64,000 nt of DNA from an uncultured delta proteobacterium (GTDB lineage Bacteria; Desulfobacterota; Binatia; Binatales; Binataceae), in the NCBI GenBank assembly GCA_963724765.1, contig CAVRVY010000004.1, forward strand, positions 1,568,001-1,632,000, given 5' to 3'. Below the pieces are notes generated by a model. That model did no database searches. It was not told the origin of the DNA and worked only from the letters and a program-made list of their open reading frames with translations. Below, piece by piece: positions 10,428-12,739 of this stretch (position 1 is the first letter of the stretch; every line of letters begins with the position of its first letter). A program made the translations under genes and the position numbers.

Positions 10428-11274
10428 ATCGACTGTACCCGTCGCTCCTGGACGCGATCACCATCGTCCAGCCGGAGACCGTGATCCGCTGGCACCGACG
10501 CGGTTTCCGCGCCTATTGGCGCTGGAAGTCCCGCCACGTCGGCGGCCGTCCAAGGATCGATTGCGAGATGCGAGCGCTGATCCGGCGGGGATGAGCCGCG
10601 AGAACCCGCTGTGGGGCGCACCGCGGATCCACGGCGAATTGTTGATGCTTGGAATCGAGGTCGCTGAATCAACCGTCGGCAGGTATATGGTCTGGCGCCG
10701 CCGACCACCGTCCCAAGGTTGGAAGACTTTCCTGCGCAATCACGTTGGCGGCATCGCTTCGCTGGATCTGTTCGTCGTACCCACGTCTCGTTCAAGCTGC
10801 TGTACGGCTTGGTGATCCTGCGTCACGCCCGCAGGCGACTAGTCGCGATCAGCGTCACTACCAATCCGACTGCCGAGTGGATCGCTGGACAGGTGACTGA
10901 CGCTTTCCCCTGGGACGAAGCGCCGCGTCACCTGATTCGCGACCGCGACGGGGGCCTTCGGCCCAGCCTACACCCATCGCATTCGGGCAATGGGGATCCG
11001 CGATCATCCGACCGCGCCGCGTTCACCGTGGCAGAACGGCCACGTCGAGCGCCTCATCGGCTCGATCCGGCGCGAAAGCCTCGATCACTTGGTCGTGTTC
11101 GACGAAGCGCAGTTGCGTCGCGTTCTGAAGAATTACGCTTCTTATTACAATCGGGTCCGAACGCATCTCTCATTGGACAAGAATGCGCCGGATTTTCGAC
11201 GCCCACAGAAGCTCGGCCCCATCGCAGCCATTTCAATTCTGGGTGGGCTGCACCACCAATATGTAAGGGTTTAG
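10428..11274 (+). pseudogene. 5'-truncated, frameshifted rve integrase-core transposase (copy of 62105-63133)
   Basis: Near-identical DNA to 62290-63133; frames broken near 10580, 10785 and 10950; element end TTTTGACTAAGCACA resumes at 12531-12545. Confidence 0.85.
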
Positions 11275-11369
11275 CAACCGTGTTGAGGGCGCGTTGCCCA
11301 CAGGGTCCACAGGCTCTGGGATCGAATAGAGCATCCCGCCTGTGGACTTGTGGGCAACGCGCAGGCTGT

Positions 11370-12329
11370 CTAATTTTTTTCGACTGCAGCCGCGCATGGT
11401 TGCCTCCAGGTAGTATTGCTCTTGAGCATGGCGTTGAGGATCACGATGATCCTGCGCATCACTGCCACCAGCGCAACTTTTTCAAGCTTGCCGCGCGCGC
11501 GCAGCCGTTCATAAAACTGCTTGAGCACCGGATTGCAGCGGATCGCACTCAGCGCGCACATGTAAAGCTTGCTGCGTACCGGATAGCGTCCGCCCCGGAT
11601 GACCCGGCGGTCGCGCCGGCCGCCGCTGTCATCGGGGAACGGGGCGATTCCGACCAGGGCCGCGGCGGCTTTGCCGCTGAGCGTGCCCAGTTCCGGCAGC
11701 TTGGCCAGCACCGTGGTGCAGAACACCTTGCCCACCCCCGGAAAACTGCGCAGCACCTCGCTCTTGCGCCGCCAGGCCTCCGAGCGCCGCACGGTCTTAT
11801 CGATATCATCGTCGATCTGTGTGATGCGGCCCTCCAGGTAAGCGATATGCTGGCGCAACTCTTTACGGACCTGCGCGCTGGCGCGCTGCAGCCGCTGTTG
11901 CTCCGCTACGCGCATCTCGAGCAATTGGTCGCGCCGGGTGGCCAATTCCTGCAACGCCTGCGTCTCCGCATCCAGCGGCGGCCGCAGCGCGGGTTGCTCG
12001 CGTTGGGCGAACAGCGCGAGCAGCCTGGCCTCGATGCGGTCGGTCTTCGCCAATAGTCCGCTGCCCCGCGTATAGCTCCGCACCCAGCTCGGATTGACAG
12101 CCGCCACTGTGACCTCTGCGGTCCATAGCGCCGCCACCACCTGCCGTTGCAATCCGCCGGTCGCTTCCACCACCACCAGCTTGGGCTGCAGTTTGCCCAG
12201 TCGACCCACCAACTGCTTCAGCCCGGCCCGATCGTAAGCCAGCGTGAAGCCCTCGCCGCTGGGGCGCACCGCCACCACCAGCTCGGTCTTGCTCACATCG
12301 ATCCCAACATAGACATCCTCCTCCATCAC
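11370..12329 (-). CDS. IS110 transposase / bridge recombinase
   Basis: [38 protein letters not shown]. Confidence 0.93.
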
Positions 12330-12344
12330 CCTGCTCCTTACTCC

Positions 12345-12497
12345 GCGTCCTACCCGTCCTTGTACATGCGGGCTTCTGCCTTGCGCGCGGCCCTGTCAAC
12401 TGTTCGAGCTGCGGACGCTTGAATTAGCGGACGCGACGATCCTGGCTAAACCACGGTCTCTTGCCGACCCAGGTTTTTACGGTCTGCCGCGCCCGCT
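12345..12497 (-). ncRNA. bridge RNA of the IS110 (target- and donor-binding loops)
   Basis: Two stem-closed loops. They contain TAAAAACCT and GGTTTAG (match the target), and ACAGTTG and TACAAG (match the donor junction). Confidence 0.8.
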
Positions 12498-12739
12498 GCT
12501 ATCTTCATACGCCGATTCTCAGATACAAGGTTTTGACTAAGCACACCACCTAAGCCGTCCGCAGCTGTCGTCGATCGATCGTTTGCTCTGGGTACGTGGG
12601 AACTGTGTTCTTCGAAGAACCGGATTCGTTTGTCGTGAGCCTTCCTTTAGGTATAGGTTTTTTCAAGGCCGGAAAGTTATTGCACGTGCCACACAACCGT
12701 GTCCGACTCGGACGGCCATAAACCCAACGGAGTTCATTC

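Follow-up and report, generated by a model that had tools for sequence, protein, structure and literature searches.

The window, by which we mean the whole 64,000-nt stretch of DNA analysed here, carries on its minus strand, at 11275..12529, an insertion sequence that very probably belongs to the IS110 group of bridge-RNA-guided elements. We observe directly its family membership, its boundaries, the conservation of its RNA structure, the covariation of its guides with flanking DNA and the repeated use of one site. The insertion point is a CT dinucleotide located 16 nt into the right inverted repeat (IR-R) of another insertion sequence, a 1.1-kb IS481-like element referred to below as the host IS.

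The boundaries were set by comparing filled with empty sites, and give a length of 1255 bp when one copy of the CT core is counted. On the minus strand the sequence across the left junction is TCAAAAC (12536-12530)-CT (12529-12528)-TGTATC, and that across the right junction ACGGTTG (11281-11275)-CT (11274-11273)-AAACC. When the filled site is set against 11 empty right ends of the host IS, only CT is common to both junctions and the empty site; it is present at both junctions of the element and once in empty sites. An earlier note on this DNA had read the two junctions in the same way, and that reading stands, but the empty site it named for comparison differs in that positions 63149-63125 read TCAAAAT-CT-AAACC, with T and not C adjoining the core. 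The form TCAAAAC-CT-AAACC is present at 7 of 11 other host-IS right ends in the genome. The outer 16 nt of the repeat (TGTGCTTAGTCAAAAC, 12530..12545, minus strand) are detached from the remainder by the insertion.

The right end of the element comprises 95 nt (11275..11369, minus strand) and includes a conserved hairpin at 11289-11362, recognized from inverted pairs I4 and I14. No terminal or subterminal inverted repeats were found in the element, and no inverted pair links its two ends. These features were compared with the IS1111 group, which includes a DEDD-transposase element that likewise inserts into the terminal inverted repeat of another transposable element, always at the same position. 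IS1111-group elements differ in having subterminal inverted repeats (11-13 bp) and a long non-coding region downstream of the gene. Assignment to that group was rejected: the longer non-coding end, of 200 nt, is the left one, against 95 nt on the right, and no arm pair lies near both ends.

The occupied copy of the host IS (10428..11274, plus strand) is itself degraded, with its first 235 bp missing and three frame-breaking indels. An unoccupied, intact copy lies at 62054..63149 (plus strand, 1096 bp), with an ORF of 344 aa at 62099-63133; its IR-R, 63125-63149, provides an empty site for comparison. The host-IS transposase contains an rve_3 domain (52.9 bits) and scores 95.3 bits with the IS481 model (cut-off 224) and 85.9 bits with the IS3 model (cut-off 160). 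The host IS, which has a single 344-aa ORF and TGTGC termini, is best called IS481-like; its scores fall below the cut-offs of both families. Insertion into the IR-R of an rve-type element, leaving the end of its ORF intact and splitting the repeat, had been proposed previously and agrees with what we find: the occupied copy keeps its ORF end and TAG stop (11272-11274), and the outer 16 nt of the repeat are separated from it.

The recombinase gene (11370..12329, minus strand) encodes 319 aa, with a RuvC-like DEDD domain and a Tnp domain containing a Ser-Gly motif. The protein matches PF01548 over residues 8-149 (77.1 bits against a cut-off of 29, E = 1.7e-21), PF02371 (62.6 bits against 21.3, E = 4.6e-17) and the NCBIfam model NF033542, 'IS110 family RNA-guided transposase' (213.9 bits against 140). 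The closest solved structures in the PDB are the transposases of ISCro4 (9t56, the best match, residues 2-307, E = 2.1e-32) and IS621 (E = 1.5e-31). Pfam, NCBIfam and PDB matches thus agree with the IS110 recombinase identity first assigned from the sequence. The GIDVSK, EAT, KTD..DA and SG motifs align with those of ISCro4, and the DDSGG motif aligns to the SG motif of 35 homologs, among which L036 lacks the G. The DEDD residues are D11, E55, D97 and, at the fourth position, E100, where ISCro4 has D.

The non-coding left end (12330..12529, minus strand, 200 nt) carries the predicted bridge RNA. We built a covariance model, R1, from 11 relatives (158 positions, 38 pairs); it matches the left end at 12341-12499 with 177.7 bits (E = 1.8e-36). 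The consensus fold of the 11 relatives consists of a 5' hairpin followed by two stem-enclosed loops, and both outer stems are present in it and in the single-sequence fold. The target-binding domain, loop 1 (12426..12497, minus strand), is closed by an outer stem of 12 pairs (12497-12486 with 12437-12426), two of which are G-U, and has an inner hairpin at 12455-12470. The donor-binding domain, loop 2 (12345..12418, minus strand), comprises helices 3-5 and is closed by an outer stem of six pairs, all Watson-Crick (12418-12413 with 12350-12345).

Each loop holds two guides, all on the minus strand. In loop 1, the left target guide TAAAAACCT (12471..12479) includes AAAAC and CT, which equal the left target and the core; over its full length it agrees with them at 8 of 9 positions. 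The mismatch is six bases off the core, at a position where the guide has A here and T in close relatives and the target has C. The right target guide GGTTTAG (12446..12452) is the exact reverse complement of CT-AAACC. In loop 2, the left donor guide ACAGTTG (12397..12403) matches 6 of 7 positions of the element's own right end, ACGGTTG, and the right donor guide TACAAG (12359..12364) is exactly reverse-complementary to the left-end sequence CT-TGTA. The earlier note had located these loops, stems and guides and described them as an IS621-type two-loop layout around a CT core; all are found where it placed them, and for the left end that layout is borne out.

Some other candidates in this region were set aside. 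With Rfam 15, no family reached its gathering score on the element; a mir-760 match (24 bits against 98) corresponds to the right-end hairpin and an sX15 match (22 bits against 55) to the opposite strand of loop 1, and both were taken as chance. A direct repeat flanking the core, AAAC-CT-AAAC, was hinted at by the consensus fold; it is present in the window and in L020 and is not general.

A left end of this kind might be a mere 5' untranslated or promoter region that resembles a bridge RNA by chance. The individual matches span just 5-9 nt, and the fold computed from this one sequence only weakly beats shuffled sequences, with z = -2.0 and 10 of 200 shuffles equally good, which is too weak to carry the bridge-RNA claim alone. 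Against this stand the comparative data. Full-length R1 matches were obtained at 59 places (E <= 3.8e-5), each upstream of a recombinase homolog (37-100% identity). In an alignment fitted to the model, 94.7% of cells are paired across 38 distinct rows, compared with 76.4% in shuffles and 37-44% in slid controls. Compensatory changes occur in 31 of 38 stem pairs of this R1-fitted alignment, and in 14 of the 20 pairs of the loop 1 domain (helices 1 and 2).

The relationship between guides and insertion sites was analysed over 31 guide classes and 51 distinct guide-target pairs, 8 of which lack a right flank because the contig stops there or the element is truncated. L003 (the same DNA as L002), L011-L013 and seven weak R1 matches (E > 0.1) were left out of the guide counts. 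In the 43 pairs with a right flank, the reverse-complemented right target guide agrees with the first 5 nt of that flank at 206 of 215 positions, and these right guides include about 16 different pentamers. With one pair per class, agreement is 128/135 for the right target guide against a mean of 50.7 in shuffles, and the left target guide agrees with left-flank positions -2 to -6 at 103/155 against 45.6; in both cases 0 of 10,000 shuffles scored as high, counts that overstate independence because the relatives are kin. The check on guide and target covariation suggested in the earlier note is therefore passed for the target guides. The comparative tests exclude chance as the source of the guides and the fold, and the reading of the left end as untranslated or promoter sequence is left exceedingly improbable.

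Individual relatives add detail to the bridge-RNA reading. In the genome of L010, the right flank predicted from the guide, CT-GGAAA, was found at the sole near-match to the left flank, and the reversed pattern, used as a control in the same genome, gave no matches. In L023 the left target guide as aligned (TTTAATCCA) agrees with the left flank at 3 of 7 positions and the right flank agrees at 5 of 5. The right end of L006 is replaced after ~40 nt and its left flank is TCAAACC, and it was unusable for the right-flank comparison. L011-L013 (37-38% identity) have R1 matches, but no CT-TGTAT left end was found in them. The left donor guide and the right end also vary jointly among relatives (ACAGTTG, ACGGTTG, ACAGTCG and ACGGTCG), although the right-end boundary was set there by the donor guide itself (<= 1 mismatch), so that covariation on the donor side is not fully independent, whereas the target test is.

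The site specified by the guides is confined to the host IS. The 12-nt site AAAAC-CT-AAACC overlaps the TAG stop codon of the host IS and occurs in the genome in its IR-R only. The 12-mer AAAACCTAAACC is present seven times, compared with 0.17 expected from base composition; all seven are in host-IS right inverted repeats, and all seven of those repeats are unoccupied. The four left junctions in the genome all bear an identical 16-nt inverted-repeat stub, with differing DNA past it. Among relatives in other genomes, L007 and L008 are inserted in the same repeat of related insertion sequences and L009 in a similar repeat. The same or a closely similar repeat is occupied by all four copies here and by relatives in four other genomes. 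Other copies at the same inverted repeat, the occurrence of which had been put forward as a check, are thus found at 4/4 left junctions here and, elsewhere, in L007 and L008.

Repeated occupancy of one site could also arise if the host IS had moved together with a single original IS110 insert, in which case the site would not be RNA-selected. The stub shared by the four left junctions is the outer tip of the host IS, and transposition of the host IS would give differing DNA past it, as observed. However, the site can be read off the guides, and the two co-vary over the 31 classes. Two IS110 variants only 91% identical to each other both occupy the site, and in other genomes related elements are found in the repeat of host ISs that share only 52-65% transposase identity. 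In addition, the outer 16 nt now lie 1.25 kb from the rest of the repeat, which should hinder transposition of the host IS. We consider hitch-hiking of this kind very unlikely and RNA-guided choice of the inverted repeat the better account.

We also searched assembled contigs, and only these, from four public sequencing runs. None of the contigs joins across the element, and none contains a circle or excision joint. The loose ends that X1 shows at 11274 and 12545 are accounted for by other copies in the genome, at C1:570807 and C3:45446. Two contigs in X2, from another study, contain the left end and the 16-nt stub and diverge at 12545; they lend weak support to the existence of further occupied inverted repeats. 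For the RNA libraries X16 and X17, contig coverage is limited to parts of the recombinase gene (90-99% likeness) and does not reach the left end; these contigs are uninformative either way regarding expression of the RNA.

The proposed mechanism follows that of the Escherichia coli element IS621, the bridge RNA of which is described by Durrant et al. 2024 (PMC11208160) and Hiraizumi et al. 2024 (PMC11208158). The left end would encode an RNA of ~160 nt with two internal loops. The left guide of loop 1 (AAAAC-CT) is identical to the top strand left of the crossover and the right guide (GGTTT-AG) complements it on the right side, and loop 2 holds the corresponding pair for the joined ends of the element itself (ACAGTTG and CT-TGTA). 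By analogy with IS621, the recombinase would hold the RNA, bring about its pairing with both the circular element and the target, and swap strands at CT. The chemistry, the circular intermediate and the expression of the RNA are likewise inferred from IS621. Joined ends of relatives have a TTGACT-like sequence and TAT.TT separated by 17-18 nt across the junction in 17 of 32 cases; for the window element and its closest relatives, the promoter-like score at the joined ends is 7/12 or below.

The likeness to IS621 extends to several features. Both elements have a DEDD and Tnp recombinase (PDB 8wt6, E = 1.5e-31) and an RNA specified by the left end, upstream of the recombinase gene. In both, the RNA has two internal loops, each with a 5' side that equals the top strand on the left of a CT core and a 3' side that complements the top strand on the right, and a natural left-target mismatch is present, which IS621 tolerates. 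In contrast, the target of IS621 is a REP element, whereas here it is the inverted repeat of another insertion sequence. The right target guide here pairs with 5 nt past the core, while the published motif analysis employed a four-base RTG for IS621; some IS621 orthologues are described in the same sources as having a longer RTG (PMC11208160 / PMC11208158). In the family of the window element the left donor guide is not followed by CT, unlike in IS621.

The window copy itself may be a decaying relic, of the same identity but no longer self-mobile, in which case it would not function as a recombinase-guide pair as it stands. At the fourth DEDD position, 35 distinct homologs have D in 32 cases, H in one and A in one, and E in the window copy alone; another copy in this genome, 91% identical to it, carries D. 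Mutation of the equivalent residue of IS621, D105, abolished recombination (PMC11208158). Exchange of D for E is conservative, however, and the mutants tested in IS621 carried other substitutions. The reading frame of 319 aa is open, and the protein scores well above the family cut-off.

A similar balance applies to the ends and to the other copies. The left donor guide ACAGTTG faces the element's own ACGGTTG, while close relatives (L007-L009 and L019-L021) have ACAGTTG as their right end and match the guide at 7 of 7 positions; IS621 itself tolerates a natural guide-target mismatch (PMC11208160). The right end also lacks ~10 nt that the closest relatives, L007-L009, carry directly before the terminal TCAACAC. 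The genome's three remaining copies are truncated, which leaves the window copy as the only full-length one, and the seven perfect targets are empty. On the other hand, one truncated copy is 100% identical (C3:45160-45445), which indicates that the same variant was recently in a second inverted repeat, and errors in the long-read assembly are possible. We give the relic interpretation somewhat less than an even chance. The three changes in the window copy may impair its function, and the description of a 'new programmable recombinase-guide pair' in the earlier note was overstated. Practical value as a tool is uncertain because the catalytic residue and the donor end have changed in this copy.

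The novelty of the IS110 element in the window is modest, and the element adds no new mechanism: the description of bridge RNAs dates from 2024, and that of IS110/IS1111 elements aimed at the inverted repeats of other transposons from 2001 and 2003. Muller, Lauf and Hermann reportedly found in 2001 that IS1383 of Pseudomonas putida H integrates specifically in the inverted repeats of IS1384. Here too the inverted repeats of another insertion sequence are the specific integration target, but the host, the elements and the target sequence are different. IS4321 and IS5075 are said to target Tn21. Of these elements, IS1383 is a member of the IS110 family. The proposal that the window element is a parasite of another insertion sequence is thus confirmed as regards its site, although targeting of this kind had been described before (IS1383/IS1384, IS4321/IS5075/Tn21). 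Natural targets are listed in the supplementary tables of PMC11208160 and PMC11187229, which may already contain some at insertion-sequence ends.

The same or a closely similar inverted repeat is occupied in at least five genomes, and recombinase relatives at ~70% identity have loops retargeted to palindrome-adjacent sites. We suggest, tentatively and as a rather unlikely generalization, that this IS110 lineage is a long-standing specialist on the IS481-like family in Binataceae-type soil bacteria, acting as a reversible brake on another transposon. If so, insertion would split the right inverted repeat of the host IS and silence it, scarless excision would restore it, and the clade would constitute a natural series of close recombinases with differing, readable sets of guides. 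As a natural example from an uncultured, Binataceae-type soil lineage, the element can be read cleanly and in full as a bridge-RNA element, and it is accompanied by ~30 related guide classes whose targets are legible straight from the RNA. RNA-guided logic explains the old finding that some IS110-type elements inhabit the ends of other transposons.

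Read on the minus strand, the outer tip of the host IS inverted repeat (TGTGCTTAGTCAAAAC, 12545-12530) is followed by CT at the left junction (12529-12528), by the body of the IS110-family element, which starts TGTATCTGAG and ends CAACACGGTTG at 11275, and by a second CT (11274-11273) leading into AAACCCTTACATATTGG. Empty sites, with the flanks uninterrupted, stand at 63149-63125 and ten times more elsewhere in the genome. Both junctions and these sites share no sequence other than CT, which makes the element 1255 bp long, with a CT core and no target duplication. Comparison of the two ends as inverted pairs found no terminal or subterminal inverted repeats. 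The earlier note had taken 63125-63149 as the empty site. The uninterrupted flanks are present there, with T rather than C adjoining the core (window 63134); exact TCAAAAC-CT-AAACC is found in 7 of the 11 other host IS right ends in the genome. Across the element's family, almost every left flank and left guide has C beside the core, so this unoccupied host IS copy may be a poorer target.

The element encodes a 319-aa recombinase (11370-12329, minus strand) with both Pfam domains of the IS110 transposases. It passes the NCBI curated model 'IS110 family RNA-guided transposase' (213.9 bits, cut-off 140), and the best matching solved structures are the transposases of ISCro4 (E = 2e-32) and IS621 (E = 1.5e-31). 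The layout of the element agrees with the published description of IS621. The four guide strings and two stems of the bridge RNA read by eye were all found in their places, and both stems are present in a single-sequence fold of the left end, which is weakly better than shuffles (z = -2.0). The whole left end could be aligned across eleven relatives (55-100% protein identity), with a consensus fold of a 5' hairpin followed by two internal loops, each closed by a stem. R1, a covariance model built on the two-loop part (158 positions, 38 pairs), gave full-length matches at 59 places (E <= 3.8e-5), every one directly upstream of a recombinase homolog, with identity down to 37%. Across 38 distinct rows, 94.7% of cells are paired, compared with 76.4% in shuffles and 37-44% with the partners slid, and 31 of the 38 stem pairs have changes on both sides; the rows were fitted to R1, which somewhat favours the structure. 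On the plus strand opposite the target-binding loop (12428-12495), a weak Rfam match to the Xanthomonadaceae sRNA sX15 (22 bits, gathering score 55) is probably due to chance.

Because every relative's left end begins with CT followed by TGTAT, left flanks could be read from this start without reference to the guides. The right boundary in each relative was taken as the one place where the 7-mer of the left donor guide, with CT next, finds a match (at most one mismatch), and the flank sequences do not depend on loop 1, the target-binding loop. The test set comprised 31 guide classes with 51 distinct guide-target pairs, 43 of them with a right flank; its right guides include about 16 different pentamers. 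Taken as its reverse complement, the right target guide agrees with the first five right-flank bases at 206 of 215 positions across the 43 pairs. Based on one pair per class, agreement is 128/135 against 50.7 in shuffles, and for the left target guide against flank positions -2 to -6 it is 103/155 against 45.6; in neither case did any of 10,000 shuffles reach the observed value, counts that are not probabilities since the relatives are kin. The guide-flank pattern in these sequences is unambiguous despite that kinship. This agreement between right flanks and guides confirms the right boundaries and thereby supports donor pairing. The right-end types ACAGTTG, ACGGTTG, ACAGTCG and ACGGTCG match the same string in loop 2, the window copy excepted (one mismatch). 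For L010, a relative whose right end lies beyond its contig, the guide predicts CT-GGAAA, and where that genome has its sole near-match to the L010 left flank, exactly CT-GGAAA follows; the reversed control pattern had zero matches there. In four relatives (L010, L019, L028 and L033) the left flank fits the left target guide better with one extra DNA base, for example TGACC-C-CT in DNA against TGACC-CT in the guide; 4 of 5 G288 copies are at CCCTAACC-CT instead. The observation and the bridge-RNA mechanism put forward in the earlier note are confirmed, more strongly than was possible by eye, and the covariation it proposed looking for in homologous IS110s is seen.

Three further copies exist in the genome, all truncated. 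Each has on its left side the same 16-nt stub and CT, with unrelated DNA beyond; other copies do occupy the host IS right repeat. The copy at C3:45160-45445 is 100% identical to the window element over the first 270 bp. Its locus (L004, C3:44743-45461) is a deletion derivative in which the repeat stub and these 270 bp abut the host IS interior (about position 432 of 1098) with an overlap of about 13 nt, the remainder of both elements being missing. Two 91%-identical copies lie head to head at C3:216692-218185 (L002:1479-2972, junction near L002:2400-2415), truncated at element positions 918 and 556, and are the product of a fold-back rearrangement or else an artefact of assembly. Their joint falls exactly at the element's internal 17-nt inverted repeat (window arms 11612-11628 and 11973-11989).

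Among elements in other genomes, L007 and L008 occupy the right repeat of ISs related to the host, and L009 occupies a similar repeat, TGTGCCTTCTCAAAAC-CT-AATCC, adjoining a transposase with 52% identity to that of the host; the left flank of L006 is TCAAACC. Relatives with 45-72% recombinase identity have other guides and other sites, many beside GC-rich palindromes. In seven such loci (L021, L026, L043 and L046-L049) the sites lie 10-25 nt downstream of palindromes of the form GCGCGC...GCGCGC, then TGTA..GGACC, resembling REP-type targets.

The host IS is about 1096-1099 bp long, with termini TGTGCCTCCCGAAAACCTTATCC (left) and TGTGCTTAGTCAAAACCTAAACCC (right) and a single ORF of 344 aa with an rve_3 domain; of nine full-length copies examined, the frame is open in five, at about 349-352 aa. 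We call it IS481-like because the best curated family models for its transposase, IS481 and IS3, both score far under their cut-offs. The TAG stop of its ORF lies within the right repeat, and the AG of this TAG is the CT core on the opposite strand. Insertion thus leaves the stop in place, and the ORF end is kept intact at 11274, as had been supposed. The string AAAACCTAAACC occurs 7 times in the 5.4-Mb genome (0.17 expected), always as an unoccupied right repeat. The left repeat offers AAAAC-CT-TATCC, which the right target guide mismatches at two positions; of the four left junctions in the genome, none is of this type.

The occupied host IS copy (10428-11274) is defective, lacking the first 235 bp and carrying three frame-breaking indels. 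It shares these indels (+GG, -A and +G relative to intact copies) with the copies at C3:197614-198711 and C3:26953-28050, the three being 99.4-99.8% identical. This defective sublineage seems to have kept multiplying all the same, presumably by mobilisation in trans.

Decay of the window element is suggested by several features. Alignment of 35 distinct homologs shows conservation of D11, E55, D97 and the Ser-Gly motif; at the fourth acidic (DEDD) position the window copy alone has E (E100), the others having D (32), H (one) or A (one); a 91%-identical partial copy elsewhere in the genome has D. The right end, which reads ACGGTTG, mismatches the element's own donor guide and, relative to L007-L009, is missing ~10 nt, and the host IS copy that it occupies is itself defective. 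In 17 of 32 distinct relatives (L024-L045 and others), joining the two ends would create a sigma-70-like pair spanning the junction: a TTGACT-like -35 in the right end, 19-20 nt before the core, a 17-18 nt spacer, and TAT.TT, a -10 box that is the invariant start of the left end. The window copy and its closest relatives score 7/12 or below, and the window's clade is without a -35 box. No excision or circle joints were found in the contigs of four public runs. The activity of the window copy is doubtful; that it is no longer autonomous is possible, and we hold this tentatively.

The window is rich in ISs. The ORF at 8698-9621 carries a Walker-A motif and resembles an IS21-type IstB helper. A 186-bp segment at 9600-9786 recurs at eight other genome places (99.5-100% identity) and is probably the end of the IS containing this ORF.

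Literature searches, not aimed specifically at the element or its host IS, found neither described. IS1383 is an IS110-family member. Targeting of the inverted repeats of IS1384 by IS1383, and of those of Tn21-family transposons by IS4321/IS5075, is in print. The element belongs to an already known kind of mobile element, and the targeting of other elements' inverted repeats is likewise already known.
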